Shown here piece after piece: positions 24,275-51,438 of a DNA stretch of 55,916 nt (positions are counted from its first letter, which is position 1; the number at the start of each line of letters is the position of its first letter). The position numbers were made by a program, and so were the translations under genes. The notes under the pieces are model-generated. The model worked only from the letters and a program-made list of their open reading frames with translations. It was not told the DNA's origin and made no database searches. The stretch comes from an uncultured Candidatus Obscuribacterales bacterium (GTDB lineage: Bacteria; Cyanobacteriota; Vampirovibrionia; Obscuribacterales; Obscuribacteraceae), in contig CAYZJR010000038.1 of assembly GCA_964478655.1 (NCBI GenBank), positions 1-55,916 of the forward strand. Reading direction: 5' to 3'.

Positions 24275-24393
24275 TTCCGTGCGAACCTACCTCGAATGGG
24301 GGAGATCGTCTGCTTTGCTAGACAATCTTCGGACCCTCTTGATAAGATGAGATTGGACTAATGTTGCGTCGCTGCTGCGCAAAGGTGGGTTAC

Positions 24394-25458
24394 ATGACTC
24401 GTCGTCGTCGTAATTTCGGTTTTCAGATGTCGGAGTTTCCCGTCGTCTTATTCATTCTTTTTATCATGCTGTTTCCGTTAATCAATCTGCTTTGCTTAGC
24501 GTGCGGTGCATGCAGTGTTTGGCTAATCTCCTTCCAAACTGCATCTACTGCTGTCGAACAGAAGAGCTTTTCGGACTCTCTGACTGCAGCGGCAAATACC
24601 GCGACTGCAATCACAAATTCGGGACTCTCAAAATGGGTGAAACTCACGCCAGTGGGTGGTTACCAAGGAAAAGGAGTCAACTTGTTTGTTGAAAAGCTTA
24701 GCTTCAGGACCGGCAGTGGGCAATATTGGTTGTACGGTCCAAACGCCAGTGCTCCGCCGCCTGCCCAGTCGGCCGATTATATCTACAGTATCAAGTCTGA
24801 AGCTACATTCACTGTTGGTCCTTTCCTTTCAATGGCTTCTTGGCCATTTATCGGTGATGTTCCTGGGCTCGGTGTTCCTGCTTCGTTTACGATCACCACA
24901 GGAAAGGCAGTCGAGCAGCCAGATCACATCGTTGATGCCAACAACACTTTGCTGGCTTCAACCGGAACTGGAAGCAACGTGTCGGCGCAGCCTGGAGGCT
25001 GGAAATCGCCCAACGGAACAGGCGAGATGTGGACTCAAAACGGATCTCCGATTCTCTCATACACAGTCTGGGTGCCCGATTCTCCCGGTTCAACAAACGG
25101 CTACATGTTCAAAATCGATACCCAAGCCAACACTCAGTACTCCGGGCAATCGTGGCTAACCGGGCGTTACGTCAATAACTATCAGCCTTCCGATGGTGGC
25201 TACATCCTGACCGGCAATGAATTTACCTTTAACGGACAAAACGGATCGAACCAAACCATGGGCATCAATCCTGGGCAAAACGTGGATTTGCAGGGAATTC
25301 AGGAGTACTGCGAAGGCGCTACGGGGTCACTTTTGCAGCTCAGAAACAACATCACCAACGACACCACCATGTCTGCTTCCGCTAAAGCAGCAGCGATGGA
25401 TGCGGTCGCCCAGTATGAAACTTGGTTGCGAGCCAACATGCCAGAAGGTTGGTGGTAA
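24394..25458 (+). CDS. secreted Asn/Gly/Thr-rich protein with TadE-like class III (prepilin-type) leader; paralog 1
   Basis: MTRRRRNFG|FQMSEFPVVLFILFIMLFPLINL: short basic leader, Gly, Glu at +5, then hydrophobic helix (TadE/Flp-pseudopilin-like); ends MPEGWW. Confidence 0.6.
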   Translation: MTRRRRNFGFQMSEFPVVLFILFIMLFPLINLLCLACGACSVWLISFQTASTAVEQKSFSDSLTAAANTATAITNSGLSKWVKLTPVGGYQGKGVNLFVEKLSFRTGSGQYWLYGPNASAPPPAQSADYIYSIKSEATFTVGPFLSMASWPFIGDVPGLGVPASFTITTGKAVEQPDHIVDANNTLLASTGTGSNVSAQPGGWKSPNGTGEMWTQNGSPILSYTVWVPDSPGSTNGYMFKIDTQANTQYSGQSWLTGRYVNNYQPSDGGYILTGNEFTFNGQNGSNQTMGINPGQNVDLQGIQEYCEGATGSLLQLRNNITNDTTMSASAKAAAMDAVAQYETWLRANMPEGWW

Positions 25459-25667
25459 TTCGGATCTGACGACACGGATCGCATGACACCAGACATGATC
25501 GCATGACATGTCAATGCGTCCGCACTGTCGACGAAAGCCCGATCAACGGCTACTTTTCGCCTCCTCCCCCAGATGGGGGAGATCTGTCACATGCCCTTGG
25601 CAGGGTGAACAGTGATTGATAGGATGAAAGAGGGTTAATGTTGTGGCTTTCGTAGTTTTTTCGCAGG

Positions 25668-26768
25668 GTGGGTCGGGTCATGTCACGTAAACGGACCAGA
25701 AGAGGCTTTCAACTGTCTGAATTTCCAGTTGTCCTCTTTATCTTCTTTATCATGTTTTTTCCGCTGATCAATTTGCTTTGTTTGGGATGTGGAGCTTGCA
25801 GCGTGTGGCTGATTTCCTTCCAGACAGCAGCAACGGCAGTCGAGCAGCAAAGTTTTGCCGAGTCGCTCAATGCTGCAGCGAATCAGGCAAAAGCAATTAC
25901 ACAAACCGGCATTTCTAAATGGGTGAAACTCCAGCCGGTGGGAGGCTATCAAAACTCAGGCGTAAACCTGTTTGTTGAGAAGCTCAGTTTCAGAACCGGC
26001 AGCGGCCAGTATTGGCTCTACGGACCCAACGCGTCGGCACCTCCGCCAGCGCAAGCTGCAGACTACATCTACAGTGTTAGATCTGAAGCAAATTTCACAG
26101 TTGGCCCTTTCCTTTCGATGGCATCGTGGCCGTGGATCGGTGATATTCCTGGTCTCGGACAGCCAGCGGCAATCACCATCACTACTGGTAAAGCGGTGGA
26201 GCAACCCGATCACATAGTTGATGCCAACAACACGATGTTGGCCTCAAGTGGCTCAGGCTCTAACGTTTCAGCGCAGCCGGGTGGCTGGAAAGCTCCAAAC
26301 GGAACAGGAGAAATGTGGACCCAGGACGGCATGCCGATTCTATCGTACACTGTGTGGGTTCCAGACTTCCCAGGTTCGAGCACTGGTTACCTGTTCAAAA
26401 TCGACACACAGCAAAACAATTGGAGCGGAAGTAACCCGAACGTCAATTGGTCCGCGTCGTCGTGGATCACTGGGCGGTACGTGAGCAACTACCAAGACTC
26501 TCAAACTGGCTTTATCCTCACTGGCAACCAGTTTTCGTTCAACGATACAAATGGCGGAACGCAAACGATTGCCGTCAACCCTGGACAGAACGTTGATGTA
26601 CAGGGGATTCAAGAATATTGCGAAGGAGCCACTGCATCTCTTAATCAGCTGATTACCGCAGTCAATGACAATCCATCAATGTCTCCGGCAGCTAAAGCCG
26701 CAGCTCTCAACTCAATCGCTCAATACCAGTCATGGTTGCAAAACAACATGCCATCTGGCTGGTGGTAA
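25668..26768 (+). CDS. secreted Asn/Gly/Thr-rich protein with TadE-like class III leader; paralog 2
   Basis: About 60% identical to paralog 1 along the full length; MSRKRTRRG|FQLSEFPVVLFIFFIMFFPLINL; ends MPSGWW. Confidence 0.6.
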   Translation: MGRVMSRKRTRRGFQLSEFPVVLFIFFIMFFPLINLLCLGCGACSVWLISFQTAATAVEQQSFAESLNAAANQAKAITQTGISKWVKLQPVGGYQNSGVNLFVEKLSFRTGSGQYWLYGPNASAPPPAQAADYIYSVRSEANFTVGPFLSMASWPWIGDIPGLGQPAAITITTGKAVEQPDHIVDANNTMLASSGSGSNVSAQPGGWKAPNGTGEMWTQDGMPILSYTVWVPDFPGSSTGYLFKIDTQQNNWSGSNPNVNWSASSWITGRYVSNYQDSQTGFILTGNQFSFNDTNGGTQTIAVNPGQNVDVQGIQEYCEGATASLNQLITAVNDNPSMSPAAKAAALNSIAQYQSWLQNNMPSGWW

Positions 26769-30757: not shown

Positions 30758-32119
30758 TTACTTGCGGCTCTGATTTGGATTTTGAAAAGGTGGAAGATTT
30801 GGGCGGAACCGCACTGGAGGGTCGAGGGTGCCGCGATACAGCCTGTCCACTTTCATAAACTTATCCCAGCGCTTGCCTGCTTGATCGCTGATGAACGCTT
30901 CTTTCTTTTCCGGGTTAAAGTCCAAAATGTTGACCACGTGCCAGACGCCCGTAGTGTCTGCATCGATAAATCCGTCATTGCCGGTGTGAACCCGCAACAA
31001 GAGGGGGAAGGCACCTCTGTTTTTGGCGGACATCAAAACAGATTGAAGACTTTCTGTTGAGTCGACACAGACGCTCGGTTCTGCGCAACGCGCTTTGTTC
31101 TCGACCGCGAAGCCGCTGTCATTGGTTCCTGTAATCTGGTTGTACACATCAGGAAGAGACGAAACATCAATGAGCGGACCGTCGTAAATGATGCTTGGGG
31201 GTGTAGTTCGCATGTCGAGCAAGCGTTCTCCGCGATCGAAGAACCCCTGACCCTCTTTGTACCGGTCGCCGCGGTTCTTCGGCATTTGGGCGAAGCGGAA
31301 GGCTCCTTTTTCGGTAGGTTTCCCTGTGGGGTCTTCGGTCACTCGGTTCCAATGAACATTCAGTGCCGTCAAAGCAAAAACATGGCTCGCGTAGCTTCTT
31401 TGATCGGACAAGGGAGGATTTACTTTTGACTCTTCATCGGGCTTTAGGCTCTCCGCATCGATAGTGATTATGGTACCGTCAGCAGTGGTGAATTGATTGT
31501 TCAATGCGATGTCGGCCACGAGTTTTGCCGCTTTCGACGGCAGGTGAATGTAGATGCGTTCTTCCACAGCCTGCGCCGAACAAGTATAGTGTTTGCCGAG
31601 ACCGACGCTCTCTGAAGGAGTTGCTGCCTGTTGCAATACTTGTTGAGCAAGTATCATCCGTTCTTTCTCACCAAGGGCGGTGTTACTTTGCTTCGGTTCT
31701 AAGAGTCGAAGAACTTGGGTGAGTGTGCTTGCCACCTCGGAGTCAGGCAGTCCGGCGGCTCGGGCTCTTTTCTGCAACAACTCCATGTTTTCGTTGAAGC
31801 GCCGGAAGTTCTTGTCGCTCTTAAATTCCGGAGCCTTCGCGTCATGAAGACGCTGTGCCGTATCTCTTAGTGTTTGAACCGTCTCCGTCAGGCTTTGTGT
31901 AGCACCGTTTGTGATGGCGGAGTCTGCCTCGGTCGAGTGTTCGCGCGTTCGTTCGCTCGCTCCCCGTAAAAGTGTCTCAGGCAGCGGCTGTCGGATGCTT
32001 TCAAGGAGCTTTTCTCCAACATCATTTTGCGATGTTGGACCGCGTGAATTCGCGTCAAGCTGACGGCTAATTTCAGCCCATGGTTCAGGCATGTTGTTGG
32101 AGGAGAGAGGGAGGGACAT
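30758..32119 (-). CDS. hypothetical protein of about 450 aa, low GC
   Basis: No confident family; Cys (GKHYTCSAQ) and downstream His (WHVVNILDF) could form a thiol-hydrolase dyad, but this is unproven. Confidence 0.45.
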   Translation of the reverse strand: MSLPLSSNNMPEPWAEISRQLDANSRGPTSQNDVGEKLLESIRQPLPETLLRGASERTREHSTEADSAITNGATQSLTETVQTLRDTAQRLHDAKAPEFKSDKNFRRFNENMELLQKRARAAGLPDSEVASTLTQVLRLLEPKQSNTALGEKERMILAQQVLQQAATPSESVGLGKHYTCSAQAVEERIYIHLPSKAAKLVADIALNNQFTTADGTIITIDAESLKPDEESKVNPPLSDQRSYASHVFALTALNVHWNRVTEDPTGKPTEKGAFRFAQMPKNRGDRYKEGQGFFDRGERLLDMRTTPPSIIYDGPLIDVSSLPDVYNQITGTNDSGFAVENKARCAEPSVCVDSTESLQSVLMSAKNRGAFPLLLRVHTGNDGFIDADTTGVWHVVNILDFNPEKKEAFISDQAGKRWDKFMKVDRLYRGTLDPPVRFRPNLPPFQNPNQSRK

Positions 32120-33276: not shown

Positions 33277-33837
33277 ATGTTGACGTGTTTCCAGTTCGAG
33301 GACATGAACGTTCTCGAACATGGTCTTAGCATTCATGAATGGTTCTGTGACCTGTACGATCACCTGATCAACGGAAAGCCGCTGACCCACAATTGGAGAC
33401 TCCCCGGTTGGATCTACGATCCGATCATCCCGAGTCTCCTTCTCGATTTCGAGACGCTCAAGACTTACCAGATCTACCACGATTGCGGTAAGCCCCTGTG
33501 TCGAACAGTCGATGAAAGCGGTAAGCAACACTTCCCGAATCATGCTCAAATCTCCAAGCAGCGGTGGCTCGAATGCTCCGACGGCTCGGAAGAGGCTCTT
33601 GCAATCGCGGAGCTGATCGGCATGGACATGGACATTCACTTGCTCAAGTCCGACGGAATCGAAGAGTTCGCAAACCGCAAGGAAGCGATTTCTCTTCTTT
33701 TGACGGGACTGTGCGAGATTCACAGCAATGCTCGAATGTTCGGTGGCATCGAGTCCACCGGCTTCAAGATCAAGTGGAAACATCTCGACAAAATGGGCAA
33801 GCGAATCTTGTCCATTCTGAACGAGCGCAAAACCTAG
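33277..33837 (+). CDS. hypothetical protein, possible HD-type metal-dependent phosphohydrolase
   Basis: His ... YHDCGK ... H ... D spacing is suggestive only; TAG stop about 100 nt before the tRNA-like gene. Confidence 0.35.
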   Translation: MLTCFQFEDMNVLEHGLSIHEWFCDLYDHLINGKPLTHNWRLPGWIYDPIIPSLLLDFETLKTYQIYHDCGKPLCRTVDESGKQHFPNHAQISKQRWLECSDGSEEALAIAELIGMDMDIHLLKSDGIEEFANRKEAISLLLTGLCEIHSNARMFGGIESTGFKIKWKHLDKMGKRILSILNERKT

Positions 33838-33939: not shown

Positions 33940-34016
33940 GCTGCCTTACGTCTCAGCGGTAGAGCGCGGGTCTCTAAAACCCAGGGTCGTGGGTTCGAAT
34001 CCCACAGGCAGCACCA
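33940..34016 (+). tRNA. tRNA-like gene with CUA (amber-reading) anticodon, encoded CCA and atypical D-arm junction
   Basis: 7-bp acceptor GCTGCCT/AGGCAGC, discriminator A, CCA; canonical T-arm GTGGG-TTCGAAT-CCCAC; D-loop AGCGGTA with GG; anticodon arm (c)GGGT-CTCTAAA-ACCC(a) gives U33 and A37 with anticodon CTA at 33974-33976. Confidence 0.6.
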
Positions 34017-34150
34017 TCTCCTCATCCATAATTCATACCCGCCAAGAAACAGCTGGTGCCATTAAAACTGGCTCCCATTCTGGATTCTTGGTCTTTGCGC
34101 TTAATCTACTGTAGAAGATAGTAATACGCGTTCAAAAAAAATTGAAGAAC

Positions 34151-34208
34151 GGAAAGCGGGCGAACCATCAAGGATTTGAGGTCCTCAATGGATCGTCCGC
34201 GTTTCGGT
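34151..34208. repeat. conserved hairpin element, copy B
   Basis: ggaaagcgggcgaaccatcaaggatttgaggtcctcaatggatcgtccgcgtttcgg; shares GAAAGCGGGCGAA(A)CCATCA..GG.TTTGA...GGA(A)TCG.CCGC with copy A. Confidence 0.55.
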
Positions 34209-34230
34209 CTAATTATCTAGAATCGGCTAA

Positions 34231-34680
34231 TCATGCCGACTCGTAGGTCTCGTTGTTCCTCAGCTCGGTCACCGCGTGGTTGATCGCTTCGTTAATGAAC
34301 TTGGCGACGGCGGTACGTTCGGCGCCGGTCAGGTCGACCGCCGTGTGCTTGCCCGTCAGCTCGATCGTGCACGAAACGTTCTGCTCGCGAGCGATCCGTT
34401 GCAGCGTTACGGTCTGATCCCATTCGCCGGCTTCGAAAACGAAGCGCGCTTTCGGACCGGAGATGGTGTTGGCGTCCGGGTCTGCGGCGAAGGCATCGAT
34501 GATCTTGTCGGTGGCGCCGATCAGATTGGCGATCTTCAGGTACTGGTTCTCGTGGCGAGTGGTGGTGTCACCCATGTCCAGTTTTGCCAGAATGTGGTCC
34601 ATCAGCCCGGCGGTGCGCTCGCGAAAGGTGCGGCGCGGACGGGCGGCTTGATCGGCAGGAACAGTGATTTGCGTGTCCAT
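34231..34680 (-). CDS. hypothetical protein
   Basis: Start at MDTQITV with gagga RBS; high GC; no motif recognised. Confidence 0.45.
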   Translation of the reverse strand: MDTQITVPADQAARPRRTFRERTAGLMDHILAKLDMGDTTTRHENQYLKIANLIGATDKIIDAFAADPDANTISGPKARFVFEAGEWDQTVTLQRIAREQNVSCTIELTGKHTAVDLTGAERTAVAKFINEAINHAVTELRNNETYESA

Positions 34681-34785
34681 ATAGTCCTCGAAAAGTAGTT
34701 TGTGCAAAGACGAGCCGCACCATCCATGGTGCCGGCTTCGCCCGGGTGTGATGCTATCCTTGCGGTTTGGCGAATCAACGAGTCA

Positions 34786-35046
34786 TTACTGTGCTTCTTT
34801 GTCGTCCAGAGCTACGCCGTAGATGGCGGAAGCGATCAAACCAAGAAGCGCGCAGCAAAGAGCTGCCAGTGCTCCGAATCTTAGTCCGAGGTAGATGTGC
34901 GCGACGAAGTAGCCGGCATAAATCACAAGATTGACGAAAAAACTCAGAACCGAACGACTGTTGACTACAAGCGAAAACAAAACCGTCACGACTGCAATGA
35001 CAGTTGCAATCATGAAGATGCTGTCTTCGACTGGCGACGATAACAT
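34786..35046 (-). CDS. small membrane protein (2-3 TM)
   Basis: Hydrophobic 86-aa ORF from MLSSPVED. Confidence 0.35.
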   Translation of the reverse strand: MLSSPVEDSIFMIATVIAVVTVLFSLVVNSRSVLSFFVNLVIYAGYFVAHIYLGLRFGALAALCCALLGLIASAIYGVALDDKEAQ

Positions 35047-35347
35047 ATGAATCCTTGCGGAAGTTGGATCTCGCCCCACGAAAAGTCCCAGGGAGGAACC
35101 TTGCGTGGTGCGTTCGAAACACCGAGGAGACAACGAAATTTAGTTCAATTGATGATGTTGTCTTTGGCGGCCTCGATGATAACGAAGTGGAATTGATGAC
35201 TTAACTTAGAGAGCGTGTATTGCAGCCTGCAAGCGATTCTGGCGCGCCCGTAACAAGTCTCGCTTGTAAATCCGACCCAACGGGGAAACATACGCGTTTG
35301 CGAACCTGAATCGGTACATTGCGGCTGGCTCGAATTGGTCTTCTTCT

Positions 35348-36796
35348 CTATTTCTCTGTTTGATAAGCAACCGACATAAAGCGCTTCTTGAACTGTTCGT
35401 ATGTAACTTTTTCCTTGTGTCCCCATGGATTATAGAGCGTCAAGGTTCCACCATTTGCACCATCGCGATCGAAGTCTAGGACGCTGTAGACGTGGTTTGT
35501 CACGTCCGAGATTCCGGTGCTTTTCCAGTTCTTTTGCCAAGCAACCACGGCAGTTTTCTCTTGCAAATCTTTGCCTACAGTCTCTTCAAGTTTTCTTTTC
35601 GTCATTCGATCCTCGTTGCCCAGGCTGGTCGGAGTCCAATGAAGCAGTGGAGTTGGGTTTGCGAGCCAGTCTTGATCGGAATCTTTTCCCGTCAGCAGGT
35701 GAATCAAATGTGCAAGGCGATGTCCTCCGCCATTGGCGCCTTCGGACGGAAGGTTGCCACCGCTCCAATTGGTGAAGATTTCCCGTCTAAACAGTTTCTT
35801 TTGGCAATATGTTCCATATGCTTTTTCGATGATCGGCGCCCATGTCCCTTTGTCGGCGGCCCCGAGAAACATTCCGCGTTCTGCTTCGGTTATTGGTTGA
35901 ACTGTGATTGGTTCGTCGGTGTCGCCTGGGAATGTAACAGTGAAGGAACCATCAGGGTTTTCGCAGATCATGTCTTTGATCGATTGGGGATTGGTCTGAG
36001 CGATCGCTGCGAGTGTTGAAACGAAATAGCAGTCACCCATTAAGCCTTGTTCGATGCCATAGATTCCAACATTTTTCTTTTCGGCATCCTCTCCTTCTCC
36101 AAACAACGACGATATGCCGATGGATTGGGCCTCGTGAGTGCGAGTAAGAACCAGATCAATTTCGTTGAGGAACTGATCGCTTTTGTCACCCATGTCGTTC
36201 TTTACGAAGTAAGTGAGTACATCGCTGACTTTGACTGGATCTTCGGGATCATCATTGTTTATGTAATATTGGAACAGTTTCTTTTCATCATCCGGAAGCT
36301 TCCCGGATTTGACCGCAGTTTCAAGTTCACCTTTCGAGAGAATGCCGTCTGCGTCTGTGTCGTGAGATGAAAGGGCCTTGAGAGAGTATGAGTTTTGTTC
36401 GATTTGTTTCTCATTGAAAAGTGCGCGAGTTTCTTTCAAATCGTCTTTGGTAATGCCTTTTGAATCGTTGTCTAGAAACCAGGTTGCATCGTCGTCCTGT
36501 TTTCGAATGTTCTTTCTGTTCCAATAGAGAGCCGCAATAGTCTGTGCGGTTTCGCCTTTGTTCTGCGGATCTTCGACGGCTTTTGCCAGTTCGTCATAGC
36601 GCAGCACACCGTCTTCATCTTTGTCTAGCGTGTCAAATAGCGCTTCTGCCTTGTCGAGAAACTCTGCCATGGATAGTCGATGTGGTTTGCCTTTTTGGTA
36701 CTCGGATGCATCAAATCCTGACGGTGGCTGAGCTTTGGAAGTAGAGCCGGAGTCAGTCGCATCTTGTGCGCCTCTGTGAAAACCCTGGAAAAACAT
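35348..36796 (-). CDS. calpain-like (C2 family) cysteine protease with two N-terminal EF-hand Ca-binding loops
   Basis: EF-hand loops DKDEDGVLRYDEL and DTDADGILSKGEL; calpain active-site blocks QGLMGDCYFVSTLAAIA (Cys) and NHVYSV...LYNPWG (His/Asn); start at MFFQ with gaggtg RBS. Confidence 0.7.
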   Translation of the reverse strand: MFFQGFHRGAQDATDSGSTSKAQPPSGFDASEYQKGKPHRLSMAEFLDKAEALFDTLDKDEDGVLRYDELAKAVEDPQNKGETAQTIAALYWNRKNIRKQDDDATWFLDNDSKGITKDDLKETRALFNEKQIEQNSYSLKALSSHDTDADGILSKGELETAVKSGKLPDDEKKLFQYYINNDDPEDPVKVSDVLTYFVKNDMGDKSDQFLNEIDLVLTRTHEAQSIGISSLFGEGEDAEKKNVGIYGIEQGLMGDCYFVSTLAAIAQTNPQSIKDMICENPDGSFTVTFPGDTDEPITVQPITEAERGMFLGAADKGTWAPIIEKAYGTYCQKKLFRREIFTNWSGGNLPSEGANGGGHRLAHLIHLLTGKDSDQDWLANPTPLLHWTPTSLGNEDRMTKRKLEETVGKDLQEKTAVVAWQKNWKSTGISDVTNHVYSVLDFDRDGANGGTLTLYNPWGHKEKVTYEQFKKRFMSVAYQTEK

Positions 36797-37512
36797 GCTT
36801 ACACCTCTGAGAAAAACGTCTGGGGTGTCGACTGAGTTGAGTTGGCGGGGTGTAGTGCGATTGTGGCGGTGCAATCTAACAATGACGTAACAGACTCGCA
36901 CTCCCGATTCTGCGCTTAAGGGGGCTGCTCCTAAGGCATACCTTGGGTTCGGGGCACTGAAATTATGCCCGTGGGTTATATCTTGACTTGGACAACCTAT
37001 GACTGTGGGTCATACCTTGGCATGTACCTCTTGCAAGCCGTTCCTTCAGCGGATTCTCGTACCGCAAGCAGCGAAGAGAGCGGTGCTTGGCAGCCATTCC
37101 TTGCCTAGCTTCGCTATAGGCTACTTGATTTTGGATGCTCGAAAGTTGGGTGCTTGAGAACTCCCATTGTTGTTTGATTTCACTGCCTTTCTGGAGTCTT
37201 GGCATGGCTAGTGCTTCTTGAAAACAAGAAAATGGCCCTTTAAAGGCCTCTAGAGAGAAAGATTTCAAGTTTCCTTAATTGAAAAGAGATGTGAAAGAGC
37301 CGTAACTTTCATAAGTTCCTTTCTAGTTTTTTTCTTTGGGCTTTAGACCTAACAAGCACTGTAATTGAGCGTTCAACGCGATAGCTTTCGATCACACGGA
37401 GTATTTAGCCGTGGCGGTTGATCTTCTCTGTTCGCGTTTGGTATCGCCTGCGGTGCTCTGCTAGCGGTTAAGTCCAAGTCTCATTCGCAAAAAACCTCAC
37501 AGGAGGTCAACA

Positions 37513-38562
37513 ATGGCACGTCATCGTGTTGTTGGGCCAGAGGATCCGAAGTCTCCTGCGATTCGTCGCCGGATGCTCGAAACCTGGCTCAAAACTATCC
37601 TGGGTTACCTCATGATGGGCGGTCTCGTCCTCGGTGCCCTGGCGGTCTTTAATTTCTCCTACGAATGGAAGCTTGGTTGGGGCCTGTTCTGGTACGTCGT
37701 GCCGATCGTGATGTGGTGGTTCAGTGCGCAGGTCGCGCTGAAGATGACCAAATCCGTCCCGGCTGACCCCAACATTCCTGAGCACAAGCGGCTCATCGAC
37801 ATCGTCGATCGTGTGTACGCCAAGAGCGGGCTGAAGTTCAAGCCGCCGGTGTACATCTCCGACAACCCGCTTCCCAACGCGTTCGCCACCGGCCCGATTC
37901 ACCGCAAAGCGGTCGTCGCTGCCACGAAGGGCTTGTTCCTTTGCGGCATGACCGACGATGAGATCGAGGCGGTGTTCGCGCACGAGCTTGCGCACGTCAA
38001 AAACTACGACGTGGGCATCAACTCTTTCCTGTCCATTCTGTCGATGATGTTCTTCATGATCGTGGACAGCGGTGTTCGCCTTCTCATGGGCAGCATCTCC
38101 ATCTTCAAGAAGACCTTCGGCATGAACCCGCAGAAGAAGGGCTTCTTCACCGGCATTCTGGAGTGGATCATCATGATGGTCATCTTCCAGATTACTGGGC
38201 GCATGACGCGTCTGGTGCAGTTCTTCGTTGTTCGTGCTCGTGAGTCCGGCGCTGATGCGACCGGTGCCATGATGACGAGTAAGCCGTGCGACCTGGCGGC
38301 TGCTCTAAAGAAGCTGGTCGCCTACGTCGAGAAGAACCGTCCGCCGAAGGGGCGCGAATCCGAACTCATGCGAGCGATTCGCCCGATGATGACGATCGAC
38401 CCGCTCTTCGACGCTTTGGCTGAGGAGCCGAAGCCGAAGACGCTGTGGCAGAAGATCGTCGCCTGGTGGAAGAGTCTGCAGCTCACGCACCCGCCGGTTC
38501 CCGAGCGCGTGAAGGAGCTGGAGCGCATGAACGGCGGCGCCTGCCCCGGTCCGACGAAGTAA
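37513..38562 (+). CDS. htpX: HtpX-like M48 zinc metalloprotease
   Basis: N-terminal TMs, FAHELAHVKNYD (HEXXH), later TM pair and GADATGAMM block; aggagg RBS. Confidence 0.8.
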   Translation: MARHRVVGPEDPKSPAIRRRMLETWLKTILGYLMMGGLVLGALAVFNFSYEWKLGWGLFWYVVPIVMWWFSAQVALKMTKSVPADPNIPEHKRLIDIVDRVYAKSGLKFKPPVYISDNPLPNAFATGPIHRKAVVAATKGLFLCGMTDDEIEAVFAHELAHVKNYDVGINSFLSILSMMFFMIVDSGVRLLMGSISIFKKTFGMNPQKKGFFTGILEWIIMMVIFQITGRMTRLVQFFVVRARESGADATGAMMTSKPCDLAAALKKLVAYVEKNRPPKGRESELMRAIRPMMTIDPLFDALAEEPKPKTLWQKIVAWWKSLQLTHPPVPERVKELERMNGGACPGPTK

Positions 38563-39948: not shown

Positions 39949-41772
39949 ATGGAGAACAAGTCAAAACGCAAGCTCATCACGTTTGGCCTTCTGGCTGTGG
40001 TGGCTGCCCTCGTTACGCTCATCTTCGCGACGGGCGATTTCAGTTTCTTTGGTGGCAAGGCCGTTTTGTCCGGCAACACGCCGGCGGCCGTCAACAACTC
40101 GACTCTCAACAAGCATGCCAACCCCGAAGACCGTCTGACCATCGTGGTCGGTCTCCAGCTGCGCAATGTTGACGAGCTCAACAAGCTCCTTGCGGAGCAG
40201 GCGAATCCGGCGTCGCCTCAGTATCGCCGTTACATCACTCCCGACCAGTTCGCGCAGCGGTATTCGCCGACGCACGCTGATGTCGACCAGGTTGTCGCCT
40301 TCCTCGGGAAGAACGGCATCCGGGTGGTTTCGGTTACCCCCAACCGCACGCTCATCCAGGCCGAGGGCACCGTCTCTCAGCTCGAGGCTGCGTTCGGCGT
40401 GACCATTAACGAGTACACGTGGACGTCTCCTGCCGGCGTGAAGAAGACCTACTTCTCCAACGCCCAGGATCCGAGCGTTCCGTCTAACCTCGCAGGCATC
40501 GTGCAGTCGGTGATTGGTCTCAACACCTTCGCCGAGTTCGAAAGCATGATGCGCCGTAGCCCGCAGCCGGCGCCGAAGGCGTTCGTGAGCGGCTACACGC
40601 CCCAGGATTTGGCTCAGGTGTACAACTACCCCAACGCCAACAACAAGAATGCCACCACGACTCTGTCGGGTAAGGGCGTCAAGATCGCCGTCGCCACTGC
40701 TGAGAACTACGACCAGAAGGACATGGACGAGTACTACAAGCAGTTCGGCATCAAGCGCACGGGCCAGGTGGTAAACATCTACGTCGGCGGCAACCCCAAC
40801 AAGGTAAACGGCGAAACCACTCTCGACCTGCAGATGGTCGCGGGCCAGGCTCCCGGTGCCGACATCCTGATGTACATGGGCAACGACCCGAAGTTCACGA
40901 CGTTCACGCTCGTGTTCAACCAGATCGTCACCGACAACAAGGCTGACATCATGTCAGTCTCCTGGGGTCTGTGCGAAGACGGTACGGGCAAGGCTCAGAT
41001 GCTGACGGAACAGGCCATCTTCAAGCAGGGTGCTGCTCAGGGCATTGCTATGTTCGCCGCTGCCGGCGACGACGGTGCCTACGACTGCCCGACGAAGAAG
41101 CCGATGCTGTCCGTGGACTACCCGTCTTCGGACCCGTACATCACCGCAGTTGGTGGCACGACGCTTTACGCGTCGGGCGGCAAGCGCACTTCGGAAGGCG
41201 CATGGACTGGCGGTGGCGGTGGTATCTCCGCTTACCACAAGCGTCCGACGTGGAACAACGGCAACGGTGTTCCTGCCGGCGACATGCGCATGAGCTCTGA
41301 CGTCTCGCTCGTCTCTGACCCGTGGACCGGCTATGCCATCTACGTGGAAGGGCAGTGGGGTGAGGTTGGTGGCACCAGCGCTGCGGCTCCGATGTGGGCG
41401 GCCCTGTGGGCGCTCTCCGTCGAGAACGCCGGCGGACGTCTCGGTCTCGCCAACGAGACCATCTATCGCATGGGCAACTCTGCCGACTACGGCAAGTTGT
41501 TCTACGACGTGACCAGTGGCAACAACGGCGATCACCGCGGACCTGGTTACAACACCGGCCCGAACTGGGATCACCCCACTGGCTGGGGCGCTCCGGATGG
41601 CACTGCTGTCGCCAACTGGATCAAGGCCGACGCGGCGAAGAATCCTCCGCCGACGTTCAGCCAGCCGGTGAAGACCAAGAAGGACGAGGACTCGACTTCG
41701 GTCGATACATCCAGTCCAGTGGCTCCGGTCGAAGCTCCTGCTGCGACTGAGCCGGCACCCGCGAAGAAGTAA
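39949..41772 (+). CDS. sedolisin/kumamolisin-like S53 serine peptidase with pro-domain
   Basis: N-terminal TM/signal, pro-kumamolisin activation region, SVSWG, GGTSAAAPMWAALWAL (S53 catalytic Ser block), C-terminal Pro/Ala tail. Confidence 0.8.
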   Translation: MENKSKRKLITFGLLAVVAALVTLIFATGDFSFFGGKAVLSGNTPAAVNNSTLNKHANPEDRLTIVVGLQLRNVDELNKLLAEQANPASPQYRRYITPDQFAQRYSPTHADVDQVVAFLGKNGIRVVSVTPNRTLIQAEGTVSQLEAAFGVTINEYTWTSPAGVKKTYFSNAQDPSVPSNLAGIVQSVIGLNTFAEFESMMRRSPQPAPKAFVSGYTPQDLAQVYNYPNANNKNATTTLSGKGVKIAVATAENYDQKDMDEYYKQFGIKRTGQVVNIYVGGNPNKVNGETTLDLQMVAGQAPGADILMYMGNDPKFTTFTLVFNQIVTDNKADIMSVSWGLCEDGTGKAQMLTEQAIFKQGAAQGIAMFAAAGDDGAYDCPTKKPMLSVDYPSSDPYITAVGGTTLYASGGKRTSEGAWTGGGGGISAYHKRPTWNNGNGVPAGDMRMSSDVSLVSDPWTGYAIYVEGQWGEVGGTSAAAPMWAALWALSVENAGGRLGLANETIYRMGNSADYGKLFYDVTSGNNGDHRGPGYNTGPNWDHPTGWGAPDGTAVANWIKADAAKNPPPTFSQPVKTKKDEDSTSVDTSSPVAPVEAPAATEPAPAKK

Positions 41773-41922: not shown

Positions 41923-43917
41923 CTAACTTTTCGCTATGGCATCCGCTTTCTCGCGCAGAAGAGGAAGTTCTCGCATGGTCGGCCAGCGGCTGAGTGCGGC
42001 GTCAAACTTGTCGAGCGAGACCTTTGAATTAGGTTCCAAAATTGCATTCAAAATCGCCCGCTGCGTTTCTTCGCTCGGGTCCCGCAACCCTTTATCCAGT
42101 GCCTCTTTTGCCATCGTTCTTGCCGCATTCAGATCGCTGTTCAGATAGCTGATGCAGCTTCTCAGATAACAGTAGGTCGCTTTGTTCGGAGCTAATTTGA
42201 GAGCCGCATCTATCGCGCTTCCGGCTGCTGTCCAGTCCTTAAGCATCACCTCGCATTCAGCGATGTAACGCTTGCTTTCTGCCCTGAGTTCAACTGCATT
42301 TGGATTCTCAAGCTTGAAGCCTAGGGCGAAGCTTCTTTCTGCATCCCGGTAGTTAGCGGCATTGTATTGGATGATTCCCAGTTGATGGAGAAACTCGCGC
42401 CGTTTCTTTCCCGTACTCTGATTGAATGCGATTTGCATAGGGGGTATTGCCTCGCTCCACCGACACAATTTTGCGTAAGTAGTGGCGAGAGTCGATTGTG
42501 CATCCACATTTTCAGGGTTGAGTGCAACTGCTTGTTTTGCGTCTGCCAGAGCCTCGTTGGGCCTGCCCAGCTCATTCAGAAGTATTGCTCGGTGCATGCG
42601 TGAATCTAGATGTTTCTGGTTCAGGTTTGCGGCCGCAGTGTAGTCTTTCAGGGCTTCTTCGGTTTTCCCTAGCTTTTCCAGTGATTTGGCACGCAGGCAA
42701 TAGCCGGTGGAGGAATAGGGGTCGAGTTTGAGGATTTTGTTTGCTTGATCGGCGGCCCGAGCGAATTCACCAAGTTCTTGTAAGGTCACGCCGAGCAGTA
42801 TGTGAGCTTGCACGTTGTCCGGGTGCTCTGCCACAAGTGGCTCAAGCAATGCTAATGCTTGGTTCCACCGTTCTTGAGTGACCAAGTGATTGCACTTTGC
42901 CAGATCGGCAAAATATTCTCTTGTTCCCTCCGGAACCATTGATTGGCTGCTAGAAAGCACGGCGGGGAAGCACACGTTGGCGACGAATGCAAAGAACAAT
43001 CCACTAACAAGAAAGGCATAGGGCGCGCGTTTTTGGATATGTGCGGGCGCCAGGTTGGAACACACCTGAGTCTTTGACATGCGATCGTGAATGACTTGGC
43101 GCTCTTTGTTGAAGACAGCAAAGGTCAAGCCGATCCAGAAAGGTCCGAGGCTCAGAGCGCGGCAAATGTATCTCCAGACTGCACGAGGAAGCGAGAGGGC
43201 GTTTCCGTTTGCTTCGGTTATGTGGATTCCTAAGAGCCGCTTGCCGAGCGTCGCTTTGAGGGGCGACTTCTCCATCAATATTCTGTAGCAAGCATCCAAC
43301 ACGATGGGTGCCAGACACACGTTGCAGATGGCAAGCCAGTAAGACTCAGGATTCATCAATCTCAAGTTGCCTGCGCTTACTGCAGCGGCAAGCCCGATCA
43401 TCGGCGATACTACCGGCCAAAGCGCGGACCCGACGCCAATCATCCATGTGTAGGTCACCGAATACGGTGACACTAAAGTAAGCACGTACTCCGGGAACCA
43501 AGGAATTCCGGCTCGCCAAGACAATGAAATCTGCCAGATTGCGGTGCTCAAATACAACCAGCCTATTGCCAAAATTCCGATGACGACGGCGTCGAAAAAA
43601 GCTGCCCCGACACGCAGAAAGAAGATGCTGTTTCCGACGCTTTGGACCTTTTCTTGTGGAGATTCCGACGGCAGGTTCTTGTTCGATTTTATAGTGGCTT
43701 TCGCACTTGCTTCGGGTTTCACATCCGGCTGAACTGCAGGGTGGTCCTCTGCTCCTTCGGTGGAGTTGGCAGGCGTCTTTTGCGGGTTTGCCGCAACTTC
43801 GGATGTGTCCGCTTGTTGGTTGTCTCCATTGAAATGTTCGACCAACTCAATCTGTTCGTCGACTTCAATGGGTTCAGATCGTTTGAGTGGTTCCATCTGA
43901 AACATTAACACTATCAA
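41923..43917 (-). CDS. membrane protein with N-terminal RDD-like domain and C-terminal TPR repeats
   Basis: Multiple TM segments (FFLRVGAAFFDAVVIGILAIGW...), then six or more TPR repeats. Confidence 0.55.
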   Translation of the reverse strand: MIVLMFQMEPLKRSEPIEVDEQIELVEHFNGDNQQADTSEVAANPQKTPANSTEGAEDHPAVQPDVKPEASAKATIKSNKNLPSESPQEKVQSVGNSIFFLRVGAAFFDAVVIGILAIGWLYLSTAIWQISLSWRAGIPWFPEYVLTLVSPYSVTYTWMIGVGSALWPVVSPMIGLAAAVSAGNLRLMNPESYWLAICNVCLAPIVLDACYRILMEKSPLKATLGKRLLGIHITEANGNALSLPRAVWRYICRALSLGPFWIGLTFAVFNKERQVIHDRMSKTQVCSNLAPAHIQKRAPYAFLVSGLFFAFVANVCFPAVLSSSQSMVPEGTREYFADLAKCNHLVTQERWNQALALLEPLVAEHPDNVQAHILLGVTLQELGEFARAADQANKILKLDPYSSTGYCLRAKSLEKLGKTEEALKDYTAAANLNQKHLDSRMHRAILLNELGRPNEALADAKQAVALNPENVDAQSTLATTYAKLCRWSEAIPPMQIAFNQSTGKKRREFLHQLGIIQYNAANYRDAERSFALGFKLENPNAVELRAESKRYIAECEVMLKDWTAAGSAIDAALKLAPNKATYCYLRSCISYLNSDLNAARTMAKEALDKGLRDPSEETQRAILNAILEPNSKVSLDKFDAALSRWPTMRELPLLREKADAIAKS

Positions 43918-44960: not shown

Positions 44961-46220
44961 TTGCTTGCAGTACGACCTACAACATCTTTTCTTATGAAAC
45001 AACTATTGGCATTGTGGCTGCCTTTGGCGGCTTGCTGCCTTGCCCTGGCTGCATGCAAGCCTCGGCAGGAGCGGACGCTTGTGGTGCAAGTTCTCAATAC
45101 GGAGCAGCGAGAGCTGACTCCGCTTGGACTGGTGCGCAAGGTATATGACTTTGAAGGGCACCTCGTCGAGCATCACTTTCCGTATCCGGACGGCGGTTAC
45201 GCGCATGTGATTTATCGAAGTGATGGAACAGTGGCGGCAACTCTCGAGGATTACCCGAGTCAGCCTGGCGCATTGGCGCCTGTTCGTAAGAGCGAGGCTG
45301 AGTTTGCAGAGGATGGAAAGACCGTGCTTTTGGGCAAGGCGTATCGCCTTGATGGCAGTCTGAGAATGGTTCGGCGCGCGTCACCGGACGGGCGCTGGAG
45401 CGACGAAGACTACCTCCCAAGCGGTCGGCAGGCGTTTAAATCGCAGCGAAACCCGGATGGTTCTTGGGAGATCACTTGCCTTCGCGTCGACGGCACCCGA
45501 GACTCAGTCGTGCTTGTGCGCAGGAGTAAAGTCGACAACGAGTCTTCGGAAGGTTCTGAACCCGAGCCGAAAGTGGTGTGGATCGACTGTTTCGATGCCG
45601 CCGGAACGGTTCGTCTTTGCCACCAAGCGTTTGCCGAAGAAGGCGAGACAATCGACCCTCTTCAGCCGCTTGCCGGTGGAACGGGCGCAATGAACGGCAG
45701 CAAGGAAGCCGGGCGTTTGGTATTCTTCTACGGCAAGGGCAGCATCGCGAGTCACTATCAGTGGTGGCGAGCAGGGCGAACCGACAATGCAGATGGCGAG
45801 GAGTTTACGCTTGAAATTGTCGGACAGTTCAAGAACACGGAGCTTGTTCGGCGCTTCTTTGTCGATGATCTTGGTGACGAGGTTTCAGTCACGAAGGTGG
45901 AACGGCAGGAAGAATTGGCTGAGTTTCCCAAAGTGTCGAGTTGGCCTGAAGACTCGGAGTCAGGGCTGCCAATTGAAACTTGGGTGGGGGGCAAGACTCG
46001 TTCGCTTTTGTTCGACGAGTTTTGCGAACTAAAAGACATGTCCGGCAAGCGACTCGCAACAGCAACTTCGCAAGAAAAAGAAACTGTAGACACGCGACTC
46101 TTCATGCGACCTCCGGGGTCGCTTTATCCTGTGCTAAATGAAGAGTTGGCGCAAGACGACGTCCAGTGGATTGGAGAGCAGGATTCTAAGAACCCTTGCC
46201 ACTGGTATCACAATTTGTGA
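44961..46220 (+). CDS. lipoprotein with MORN-variant repeats (paralogous architecture to 38698-39765)
   Basis: LPLAACCLALAACKP lipobox; RSDGTV, YRLDGSL, SPDGRWS, NPDGSWE repeats. Confidence 0.55.
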   Translation: MLAVRPTTSFLMKQLLALWLPLAACCLALAACKPRQERTLVVQVLNTEQRELTPLGLVRKVYDFEGHLVEHHFPYPDGGYAHVIYRSDGTVAATLEDYPSQPGALAPVRKSEAEFAEDGKTVLLGKAYRLDGSLRMVRRASPDGRWSDEDYLPSGRQAFKSQRNPDGSWEITCLRVDGTRDSVVLVRRSKVDNESSEGSEPEPKVVWIDCFDAAGTVRLCHQAFAEEGETIDPLQPLAGGTGAMNGSKEAGRLVFFYGKGSIASHYQWWRAGRTDNADGEEFTLEIVGQFKNTELVRRFFVDDLGDEVSVTKVERQEELAEFPKVSSWPEDSESGLPIETWVGGKTRSLLFDEFCELKDMSGKRLATATSQEKETVDTRLFMRPPGSLYPVLNEELAQDDVQWIGEQDSKNPCHWYHNL

Positions 46221-46237
46221 CCTCAACTAAACAGCTT

Positions 46238-47395
46238 ATGATATTCACAATTCTTTTCCAGCTGACCGATTTGCGTCTGACGGAGCCGCACTGGCTCTGG
46301 CTTGCGTTGGTTGCGCCGGCTCTCGTTATTTTGAGAAAACGTCTGCGCATTGCCTTTGCGCACACGTCGACTTCCATTCACAAAGCCACACGCAATCGCG
46401 ATTGGACCGGGGTGTTCGTCGCCGTCTTGCTGGTGGTTTCATGGGCATCGTTCTGCATCGCGCTGACGAAGCCTCGCCTCGTGCATCAGGAGATGCGGCG
46501 CACTCTCAATGCCCGCGACTTCGTGATCGGTATCGATCGCTCTGGTTCGATGTTTGCCTCGGACATCAAGAATCCGCAGCTTCGTCAGGAAATCGACGCT
46601 TTCGCCGAGGGGCTGGCCAAGCAGGAAAAGGCGATGCGCGAGGCGTACCCCAAGCTTTATCCGTATCCCCCGGATGCACCTCAAGCGACGGTCGCCGCCG
46701 ATCATGTGAGGCGGTTCGACTTGGCTCGCTATGCGGCGTTCAAGTTTCTCGGCAGTCGTCCCCAGGGTGATCGAGCGGCGCTCTTCACCTTCGACGACGA
46801 TGTTTATTGGGCGTGGCCACTGGGTTCTGACCTCAATGTCGTTTCGCGAAAGACTGAGGAGTTGTCGACGTCTAAGCAAGGCGGAGGCACTAACTTCGAA
46901 GGTCCGACGCAGAACAATCCGAGGCAAGGCGCCTTTCAAGCCACGATCAATCACCTGGAAAAGCTCGCGAAAGCCAAAACGCGAGTACTCATCTTCGTCT
47001 CCGACGGCGACGCCGGAATCAGCCCGGAGCGCCATCAAGCGCTTGTCGAGCAAATGAAGAGGGAGAATCAGGAGATTCACATCTTCGCGCTTGTTTGCGG
47101 CGCCAAGACACAGTTGGACAACGCAAGCACTCAATCGCTCCGCAAGCTGGTTGAAGCGGTGAATCCGCAAAACTGGCACGACAGCAAAGGCGAAAAGGTC
47201 GATGCCGTGCTGTGGGCCGGTGATGGTGAAGCGATGAAGAGCGCCTTCGCGCGCATCAACGAACTCGAGAAGTCGGCCGTAGAGCTTGAACCGATCGAGG
47301 GTTTCAAGGACGTGACGTTTCAATTCATTCTGCTTGGGGCACTCAGCCTTGCGGGGTTGCTCGTCGCGTGCACACTACTTAACGAGAACTTCTAA
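46238..47395 (+). CDS. BatA-like von Willebrand factor A domain membrane protein
   Basis: N-terminal TM pair, VIGIDRSGSM MIDAS motif, C-terminal TM. Confidence 0.65.
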   Translation: MIFTILFQLTDLRLTEPHWLWLALVAPALVILRKRLRIAFAHTSTSIHKATRNRDWTGVFVAVLLVVSWASFCIALTKPRLVHQEMRRTLNARDFVIGIDRSGSMFASDIKNPQLRQEIDAFAEGLAKQEKAMREAYPKLYPYPPDAPQATVAADHVRRFDLARYAAFKFLGSRPQGDRAALFTFDDDVYWAWPLGSDLNVVSRKTEELSTSKQGGGTNFEGPTQNNPRQGAFQATINHLEKLAKAKTRVLIFVSDGDAGISPERHQALVEQMKRENQEIHIFALVCGAKTQLDNASTQSLRKLVEAVNPQNWHDSKGEKVDAVLWAGDGEAMKSAFARINELEKSAVELEPIEGFKDVTFQFILLGALSLAGLLVACTLLNENF

Positions 47396-47401
47396 TGTCT
47401 T

Positions 47402-48124
47402 ATGAAAATCATTCGTTATGTTGGTTTGGCTGTCGCAGTCCTCTCTCTGGACGGCGTCATCGCCTACCGCCTGCATGAAGGCAGTGCCACCGAATATGAC
47501 GCCATGGCGTTTGTCGGTGTGCTTGCCGCTCTTCTGTTTCTACTTGCGCTCAAGACGCTGAGGAATCGGCTTGCGCGTGCCACGGCGCTTGTTTCCGGAT
47601 TGGCGCTCGCCTTGTCCGGTGCGGCGCTTTTGACGCAGACCGCTCCACAAGTCGGCGTTTACAATAACGCCATTGTTTCGATGCAGGAGGGCGACCTTCT
47701 GCAAGCCATAAAGCTCTTCGATGAGAGCGTGACGATTCACAAGAAGCTGGCCGAACGCCCGCTGCTTGCTCGTTTGATCTCGCCGAAAGTGCGAAATGAC
47801 TTTGAGGCACTGGCGTTGTTTCACAAGGCAAACTGTCTCGTTAAGCTCAACAAAGGCAAAGAGGCAGTCGATGCTTTGAAGAAGTCACTGCAGTCAAACC
47901 CCGGCAACTGCTATGAAGGGCTTGATCTGTCCGCCGCGCAACGACGTTATCTCGAAGCGCTGGAGGCTCAGTCCAATCTGGAGAAGCTCTTCAAGAGCGG
48001 GCAGGGTGGTGGACACGCAACTGGTCCCGGAGGCGGGCAAGGGCAGCCTCAGCCGGGTCAACAACCCGGGCGCGAACGTCAGCCGCAGCCGGGTGCGGGC
48101 AAACAAGAGCGCGACGCGCTGTAA
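47402..48124 (+). CDS. BatC-like TM + TPR protein with Gly/Gln/Pro-rich tail
   Basis: N-terminal TMs, TPR repeats, low-complexity C-terminus. Confidence 0.55.
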   Translation: MKIIRYVGLAVAVLSLDGVIAYRLHEGSATEYDAMAFVGVLAALLFLLALKTLRNRLARATALVSGLALALSGAALLTQTAPQVGVYNNAIVSMQEGDLLQAIKLFDESVTIHKKLAERPLLARLISPKVRNDFEALALFHKANCLVKLNKGKEAVDALKKSLQSNPGNCYEGLDLSAAQRRYLEALEAQSNLEKLFKSGQGGGHATGPGGGQGQPQPGQQPGRERQPQPGAGKQERDAL

Positions 48125-48141
48125 CCTCAACTTCTCATTGT

Positions 48142-49329: not shown

Positions 49330-49348
49330 CTTCTAACTTCTCAGACAC

Positions 49349-50395: not shown

Positions 50396-50418
50396 TTTGG
50401 TCTACAACCTCAAATACT

Positions 50419-51408: not shown

Positions 51409-51438
51409 GTTGTTCCAGCCGAATTAACCATTGAGCCT

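Follow-up and report, generated by a model that had tools for sequence, protein, structure and literature searches.

A candidate calcium-regulated, calpain-like protease with an N-terminal EF-hand domain in Obscuribacterales bacteria

Introduction

Calpains are textbook calcium-activated proteases. The question addressed here is whether a bacterium can carry a calpain-type protease together with an EF-hand module of its own, and how such a module could act on the catalytic core. It is raised by a single gene on the minus strand of contig CAYZJR010000038.1 (GenBank assembly GCA_964478655.1), from an uncultured Candidatus Obscuribacterales bacterium; the whole stretch analysed, positions 1 to 55,916 (55,916 nucleotides), is called the window. 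In the 482-residue product a predicted calpain-like core is preceded by a predicted EF-hand domain, an architecture that seems undescribed in bacteria and an exception to published surveys.

35348 to 36796, minus strand: complete gene for the EF-hand/calpain-like protease, 482 codons plus a TAG stop (35348-35350)

The original prediction for this gene held that bacterial calpain homologues generally lack calcium-binding modules. For EF-hands the surveys of 2015 and 2022 state as much: no EF-hand domain is present in any bacterial homologue surveyed, only the CysPC core is common to these and other calpains, and the bacterial proteins are predicted to be mostly calcium-independent (Rawlings 2015, PMC4631099; Veselenyiova 2022, PMC9380684). 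Melainabacteria and Obscuribacterales are mentioned in neither survey (PMC4631099, PMC9380684), and a literature search for calpains in Melainabacteria found no paper. Apart from the present EF-hands, one calcium-binding module alone has been reported for bacterial calpains, the HemolysinCabind repeat of a Gloeobacter homologue.

The protease core

The first step is to establish whether the C-terminal half of the protein belongs to the calpain family (C2). The core and its catalytic residues are located as follows.

35351 to 36061, minus strand: compact calpain-like (C2) protease core, residues 246-482
36029 to 36049, minus strand: active-site segment QGLMGDC; it contains Gln250 (36047-36049), presumed to form the oxyanion hole, and the catalytic Cys256 (36029-36031)
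35492 to 35494, minus strand: catalytic His435, aligning with the calpain catalytic His
35429 to 35431, minus strand: catalytic Asn456 in NPWG, aligning with RNPWG of calpains

Pfam places Peptidase_C2 (PF00648) on residues 246-462 at 33.5 bits against a gathering cut-off of 23.8 (E 3e-8), and the hidden Markov model (HMM) thereby supports the domain. A search of the PDB with the single sequence missed calpains; they were found only with a family profile, built from 37 relatives, which retrieved calpain cores at E-values from 1.6e-17 (calpain-5) down to about 1e-9. In the profile-to-PDB alignment the QGxxGDC(W) and HxYSV...RNPWG motifs coincide with those of calpains. An AlphaFold2 model built on the same alignment has a mean predicted local distance difference test score (pLDDT) of 86 and a predicted template modelling score (pTM) of 0.87 over the whole chain; when it was compared with known structures by Foldseek, the best 34 matches were all calpain cores (best E 3.5e-8). 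The modelled fold is the two-subdomain calpain core, as against other papain-like folds.

The catalytic residues are strongly kept. In an alignment of 151 family members, which underlies all conservation counts given here, Gln250 is retained in 149, Cys256 in 147, His435 in 147 and Asn456 in 137, with Asp in 11 more. All motifs quoted in the original prediction were found again: QGLMGDCYF (Gln250, Cys256), NHVYSV (His435), LYNPWG (Asn456) and, in the N-terminal half, the loops DKDEDGVLRYDE and DTDADGILSKGE. The claim of a calpain catalytic core is upheld by the Peptidase_C2 score, the fold and PDB profile matches and the conserved catalytic set; sequence and model together confirm the C-terminal half as a predicted calpain (C2) core with its catalytic set intact. 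Given these HMM, profile and fold matches and the conserved residues, the core can be expected to be catalytically competent.

Could the protein nevertheless be a non-catalytic homologue (a pseudo-protease), or a classical eukaryotic calpain acquired by recent transfer? Non-peptidase calpain homologues are common (29 of 267), and two bacterial calpains cluster with eukaryotic ones (Rawlings 2015, PMC4631099). Here, however, every catalytic residue is present, as in about 97% of relatives, identity to eukaryotic calpain cores is only 12-19%, the order of the domains and the type of EF-hand are different, Calpain_III is lacking, and among the matches listed all the closest belong to the same bacterial family. 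Either reading is scarcely credible.

The core shares with classical calpains (CAPN1/CAPN2, MEROPS C2) the order Gln, Cys, His, Asn and the motifs QGxxGDC and NPWG, and like them it carries EF-hand motifs in the same polypeptide. It is markedly smaller, with about 235 residues against about 320 in eukaryotic cores. The chain ends 26 residues past the catalytic Asn456, so that no sequence is left C-terminal of the core for a Calpain_III (CBSW/C2-like) domain, for which Pfam gives no match. Of the features that define classical calpains, the C-terminal penta-EF-hand and Calpain_III are missing and the two core calcium sites appear to be, while membership in family C2 is indicated by HMM, catalytic set and fold, and membership in the EF-hand superfamily by HMM, loop pattern and helix-loop-helix prediction.

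The core calcium sites have a direct bearing on regulation. In rat calpain-2 they are formed by I89/G91/D96/E175 and by E292/D299/Q319/E323 (Rawlings 2015, PMC4631099). In the PDB alignments the segment of 20-30 residues that follows RNPWG and carries calpain site 2 has no counterpart, the sequence running NPWGHKE-KVTYEQF. At site 1 Asp96 is apparently replaced by Gly, if positions are counted backwards from the active-site Cys, and the E175 position is not alignable. Both core calcium sites that regulate eukaryotic calpains therefore appear to be absent. Because the site-2 segment is deleted and the D96 position is apparently Gly, the intrinsic calcium switch of classical calpains would be missing too, and any calcium control would have to stem from the EF-hand domain.

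The EF-hand domain

The EF-hand domain spans residues 43-204 and lies N-terminal to the core, whereas the calcium-binding module of classical calpains is C-terminal; it is a two-lobe, four-motif domain with two canonical sites, whereas theirs is a penta-EF-hand.

36395 to 36670, minus strand: EF-hand lobe 1, residues 43-134, with a canonical EF1 loop and a degenerate EF2 loop
36590 to 36625, minus strand: EF1, predicted calcium-binding loop, DKDEDGVLRYDE, residues 58-69, ligands 1/3/5/12 being D/D/D/E
36437 to 36475, minus strand: EF2, degenerate loop, LDNDSKGITKDDL, residues 108-120
36185 to 36394, minus strand: EF-hand lobe 2, residues 135-204, with a canonical EF3 loop and a degenerate EF4 loop
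36326 to 36361, minus strand: EF3, predicted calcium-binding loop, DTDADGILSKGE, residues 146-157, a full PROSITE PS00018 match
36218 to 36256, minus strand: EF4, degenerate loop, NDDPEDPVKVSDV, residues 181-193
36119 to 36184, minus strand: long connecting helix (modelled), residues 205-226, joining the EF-hand domain to the core

Searched with the whole protein, Pfam EF-hand_6 (PF13405) matches residues 51-74 at 26.6 bits against a cut-off of 25 (E 3.9e-6); on the isolated domain the score rises to 32.2 bits over two stretches. The N-terminal region of the family profile also matches calmodulins (E about 4e-5). Both canonical loops fit the 12-residue pattern, in which positions 1, 3, 5 and 12 supply oxygen ligands, position 6 is Gly and position 8 is hydrophobic. 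The original prediction of two canonical 12-residue loops is borne out, since the ligand pattern holds on alignment and is conserved across the family, and the EF-hand HMM check agrees with it. In EF1, 138 of the 151 members have D at position 1, 124 have D or N at position 3, 129 have G at position 6 and 147 have E, Q or D at position 12. Each ligand position of EF3 is kept in about 60-75%.

Between and after the canonical loops lie two degenerate ones. EF2 retains G114 in 102 members, I, V or L at 115 in 147, S or T at 116 in 141 and D119 in 133, while columns 109-110 are mostly gaps; as a partner loop it still has the hydrophobic residue of the beta-bridge and, at loop position 12, an Asp, and its 1/3/5 ligands are not conserved. 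EF4 has the family pattern G-[IVL]-[TS]-x-x-D-[LIVF], as in EF2, giving the degenerate element "GI(S/T)xxDL". The AlphaFold2 model contains four helix-loop-helix units with single-residue beta-bridges at 65, 115, 152 and 189; the helix-loop-helix elements of lobe 1 have pLDDT >90 except for an insert at about residues 100-110, and lobe 2 is mostly >90. Comparison of residues 40-134 with 135-228 by hhalign gave 98.4% probability (E 6e-15), with EF1 falling on EF3 and EF2 on EF4. By its sequence, then, the predicted EF-hand domain is composed of two homologous lobes, each with one canonical and one degenerate loop.

This arrangement corrects one point. The two canonical loops had been described as an EF-hand pair; both exist, but they do not pair with each other. 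They are EF1 and EF3, 88 residues apart and hence too far to be partners, and each is coupled to a degenerate loop, as far as the pairing can be read from the secondary structure and spacing of the model. The connecting helix, in which Q224 is nearly invariant, leads from the second lobe into the core, and the pTM of 0.87 suggests a fixed arrangement of EF-hand domain and core.

Proposed control by calcium

How might this domain act on the core? The best explanation, which we consider probable at a modest level of confidence, is that calcium at EF1 and EF3 repositions the EF-hand domain and helix against the core, controlling or stabilising its activity. The protein would be a soluble, stand-alone, 482-residue calpain-fold cysteine protease whose catalytic core lacks both of the calcium sites intrinsic to eukaryotic calpains; a long helix would join this core to an N-terminal two-lobe EF-hand domain with one functional-looking calcium site per lobe. 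Calcium would bind EF1 and EF3, the calcium-loaded domain and the connecting helix would repack against the core, and this repacking would switch or stabilise proteolytic activity. By analogy, such logic would be that of enzymes fused to a calmodulin-like domain rather than that of classical calpains. Calcium-dependent protein kinases and NOX5 offer the comparison, as an analogy of mechanism only: in both, a single chain holds a catalytic domain and, linked to it by a helix, a multi-EF-hand domain, and in NOX5 the EF-hands are likewise at the N-terminus. Their catalytic domains are unrelated to that of the present protein, in which only two of the four EF motifs are canonical and regulation is only inferred.

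Several observations weigh against control of this kind. Taken by itself, EF3 scores a sub-threshold 14.8 bits with EF-hand_6 (E 0.024), and EF1 departs from PS00018 at one place, loop position 9, which is Arg. The EF3 loop is missing in about 20-25% of relatives, so the core may be able to do without control by calcium. In the cytoplasm of bacteria free calcium is sub-micromolar, and in this organism it may never rise far enough to occupy an EF-hand. Relatives bearing LysM or RHS regions, described below, hint at an extracytoplasmic role. Finally, the window offers no conserved operon partner that would give a functional clue, apart from a sedolisin gene that recurs beside one relative (L002).

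Calcium might instead be a structural cofactor and not a switch. The EF-hand domain would then be constitutively loaded, or would serve as a folding/stability or substrate-/partner-binding module, and activity would be controlled otherwise, for example by autoprocessing of the N-terminal region. Degeneracy of two of the four EF motifs and the Arg at position 9 of EF1 are in keeping with this, as is the modelled pTM, which suggests a rigid, tightly packed two-domain body; a short motif conserved within the disordered N-terminus might serve for processing or docking. The calpain-like peptidase Tpr of Porphyromonas gingivalis reportedly needs calcium for stability and processing. Against a purely structural role stands the strong conservation of the canonical EF1 and EF3 ligands across a divergent family, which implies selection for calcium binding. 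On balance a structural cofactor seems distinctly unlikely, and repositioning of the EF-hand domain by calcium is preferred.

Family, distribution and variants

The protein is not a one-off; it is a member of a large paralogous family, whose sequences public databases list as hypothetical proteins. Scanned in full with HMMER, 1.84 billion representatives of 50%-identity clusters gave 3259 matches at E<=1e-3, 794 at E<=1e-10 and 140 at E<=1e-30. The two-part architecture recurs: of 182 proteins matching the query, 150 extend over the EF1 region as well as the core as far as the catalytic Asn, and in 75 sampled representatives Peptidase_C2 was found in all 75 and EF-hand_6 together with it in 49.

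A survey of one genome per GTDB species identified 175 places that encode a relative, and host taxonomy was taken from the best 80 of them. Nearly all of these 80 are in metagenome-assembled genomes labelled Obscuribacterales, Melainabacteria or "Cyanobacteria bacterium"; three are Sericytochromatia, and isolated cases come from Armatimonadetes, Bryobacterales, Vulcanimicrobiota, Actinobacteria and Myxococcales. Two to four copies per genome are frequent. The best GTDB match (L001) is only 52% identical to the window protein, whose host is therefore probably an Obscuribacterales relative not represented in that genome set. The sequences thus describe a large, paralogue-rich predicted family centred on Obscuribacterales (Melainabacteria), non-photosynthetic relatives of cyanobacteria.

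The original prediction had proposed that the fusion was assembled independently of eukaryotic penta-EF-hand calpains. The module at the opposite end of the chain, the different EF-hand type, the lack of Calpain_III and the low core identity all speak for this, and on these sequence grounds the fusion looks independent. Compared with surveyed bacterial calpains (P. gingivalis Tpr, cyanobacterial CysPC proteins with PPC, the Gloeobacter homologue), the family shares a non-classical C2 core without Calpain_III, a patchy phylogenetic distribution and an accessory-gene composition. It differs in that signal peptides or membrane-spanning segments are present in many of those proteins, and in none of the 48 members checked here.

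Longer variants exist. Proteins of about 1,180 residues carry further EF-hands and a LysM domain N-terminal to the same EF-hand/core module. In three others (P0134, P0115 and P0151) the core stands alone at the C-terminal end, behind an N-terminal region that is RHS-like by BLAST; Pfam RHS_repeat was found in 2 of the 75 sampled relatives. At 14 loci (e.g. L007:11308-12255 and L017:11389-12219) a protein of 270-315 residues is encoded directly downstream of long paralogues of about 830-1,200 residues, several of them with LysM. This downstream protein, which might act as partner, inhibitor or chaperone, has no Pfam match, and the window encodes nothing equivalent. Adjoining the 52%-identical relative is a gene for a 2,778-residue protein with RHS repeats and an annexin repeat (L001:12201-20537), which looks like a polymorphic toxin; BLAST found no similarity between it and the window protein.

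Location and possible export

Where would such a protease act? Checks of 48 family members found neither a signal peptide nor a credible membrane-spanning segment in any of them, so the lack of a signal peptide reported for this protein holds family-wide. For want of a signal peptide the cytoplasm is the default location, although the LysM and RHS relatives mean that the matter is not settled.

These relatives bring in another alternative, namely that the protein is an effector or toxin protease exported by a non-Sec route, inactive in the low-calcium cytoplasm and active where calcium is high, either outside the producing cell or inside a target cell, with a logic that would be akin to the calcium-dependent folding of RTX toxins. 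Genomes with several paralogues and N-termini that are polar, variable and predicted to be disordered would suit this idea; no secretion signal was seen, in checks covering Sec-type and membrane-spanning signals only. Long paralogues add a LysM peptidoglycan-binding domain and extra EF-hands, and the cores of P0134, P0115 and P0151 sit at the toxin-like C-terminal end of RHS-like proteins, but RHS and LysM forms are a small minority of the family. The EF-hand region also matches the XopAW type III effector family (NCBIfam NF041410), residues 48-165 aligning to profile positions 63-165 of 235; the score of 34.8 bits is far under the curated cut-off of 120, and no type III secretion system was seen in the window. 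To our knowledge, XopAW lacks a protease domain.

Composition gives a further point in favour of export: the gene has a GC content of 47.5% and a third-codon-position GC content (GC3) of 0.49, against GC3 values of 0.75-0.81 in neighbouring housekeeping-type genes, which fits an accessory or laterally exchanged gene. On the other side, no secretion-system gene at all was seen in the 56-kb window, the relatives have no adjacent immunity-like or chaperone gene in common, and a free catalytic cysteine favours a reducing compartment. Export is unlikely, if worth weighing. The broader proposal, that the EF-hand/calpain family provides Obscuribacterales with an arsenal of effector or toxin proteases that are gated by calcium and leave the cell without a signal peptide, by a route as yet unrecognised, would have a slimmer chance still. 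If it were true, calcium would provide a safety catch, convergent with eukaryotic calpain regulation and triggered outside the cell or in prey or host, and would point to an antagonistic lifestyle in Obscuribacterales; we know of none described in this group. A protease, by default cytoplasmic, that would be controlled by its EF-hand domain remains the preferred interpretation.

Gene structure and start codon

The ATG start lies at 36796 on the minus strand and is preceded, across a 5-nt gap, by GAGGTG (ribosome-binding site GAGG). An identical 482-residue protein (P0001) is found in public assemblies. In two near-identical contigs gene callers begin at Met43 and give a product of 440 residues. 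A frameshift as the cause of this shorter call was ruled out: on alignment the 42 codons upstream of Met43 are open and in frame in both contigs, with two substitutions and no frameshift, and the short form is a gene-caller choice. The residues upstream of Met43 are conserved at the protein level in relatives with 51-82% identity. Since the upstream codons are open and the N-terminal sequence is conserved, the 482-residue form is retained.

Read-through of the TAG stop by a nearby tRNA with anticodon CUA was also considered and rejected; the resulting 48-codon extension looks non-coding, and TAG terminates 10 of 42 long open reading frames (ORFs) in the window.

36671 to 36796, minus strand: N-terminal region, residues 1-42, polar and of low model confidence

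In the AlphaFold2 model residues 1-30 have a mean pLDDT of 36-51, and residues 1-24 are below 50. Inside this otherwise disordered and variable N-terminus lies the short conserved motif FDASEYQ (residues 28-34, 36695-36715, minus strand), kept as [FL]D[AP]x[EDQ]YQ in the closest relatives (P0003-P0008 and L001). It could be a processing, docking or targeting site.

Genomic context

The window consists of ordinary chromosomal DNA, with genes for a DeoC aldolase, a pyrophosphatase, a Kef-type exchanger, an SPFH protein and an EamA transporter, as well as for MoxR/VWA/DUF58 proteins and peptidases of families M48, S53 and S41.

37513 to 38562: M48 (HtpX-like) peptidase gene
39949 to 41772: S53 sedolisin gene, with a pro-kumamolisin activation domain
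52608 to 54320: PDZ-S41 tail-specific protease gene
44961 to 52566, plus strand: same-strand run encoding VWA-domain proteins, a TPR protein, a MoxR-type AAA ATPase and DUF58, resembling a Bat/MoxR-VWA operon

Among these neighbours only the sedolisin recurs beside a relative, the one at L002 (55% identity). When 1187 ORFs from the window and the 80 loci were clustered, all that emerged was generic two-component genes beside the closest orthologues and, behind the long paralogues, the protein of 270-315 residues described above; the window has neither. PADLOC gave no anti-phage defence match for the protein or its neighbours, and PHROG no phage match for the calpain-like protein. Between the calpain-like gene and the divergent M48 gene is a 716-bp gap (36797-37512) with no convincing gene and no Rfam match, in which promoter- and terminator-like sites are no commoner than in shuffled sequence; a promoter and terminator scan of 34000-37600 likewise did no better than shuffled sequence.

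Gene composition in the window is bimodal, housekeeping-type genes having GC3 values of 0.74-0.81 and others 0.49-0.56. The latter group comprises the calpain-like gene, genes for TPR proteins (3519-5252, 16269-18734 and 41923-43917) and hypothetical genes (24361-26768 and 30758-32119). This pattern suggests a mosaic of core and acquired genes.

Two further elements lie near the 3' end of the calpain-like gene.

33940 to 34016, plus strand: tRNA of amber-suppressor type (CUA anticodon), separated from the calpain-like gene by 1.3 kb
33277 to 33837, plus strand: 186-residue ORF just upstream of this tRNA

ARAGORN labels the tRNA 'tRNA-Pyl', and Rfam tRNA matches it at 52.5 bits; it has a weak D-stem and a mismatch in the uppermost pair of the anticodon stem. 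Two near-identical contigs (L081 and L082) keep this tRNA, and over 52-66 nt it is 83-88% identical to CUA tRNAs in the large phages XacN1, Phosso and CBB, whose genomes measure 378-469 kb and whose CUA tRNAs are annotated tRNA-Sup or tRNA-Pyl. As TAG ends a good share of the long window ORFs, the calpain-like gene included, there is no wholesale TAG reassignment. The 186-residue ORF matches phrog_14850, a phage protein family of unknown function, at E 5.8e-57 over profile positions 90-270 of 270; its YHDCGKP motif resembles that of an HD-type phosphohydrolase. ORF and tRNA together may be a phage-derived module.

Significance

The family suggests that bacteria built their own combination of EF-hands and calpain core, with the opposite domain order and a different EF-hand module, and that this fusion was made on a core that had lost, or never had, the intrinsic calcium sites. 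With it, the non-photosynthetic sister lineage of cyanobacteria (Melainabacteria and Sericytochromatia) enters the debate on calpain origins. The value of the finding would be evolutionary and mechanistic: judged from sequence, it is a useful and somewhat surprising exception for calpain specialists, and not a new kind of biology. It may offer a small single-chain system for asking how an EF-hand domain can control a calpain core, and it also bears on whether calcium signalling through proteolysis exists in bacteria.

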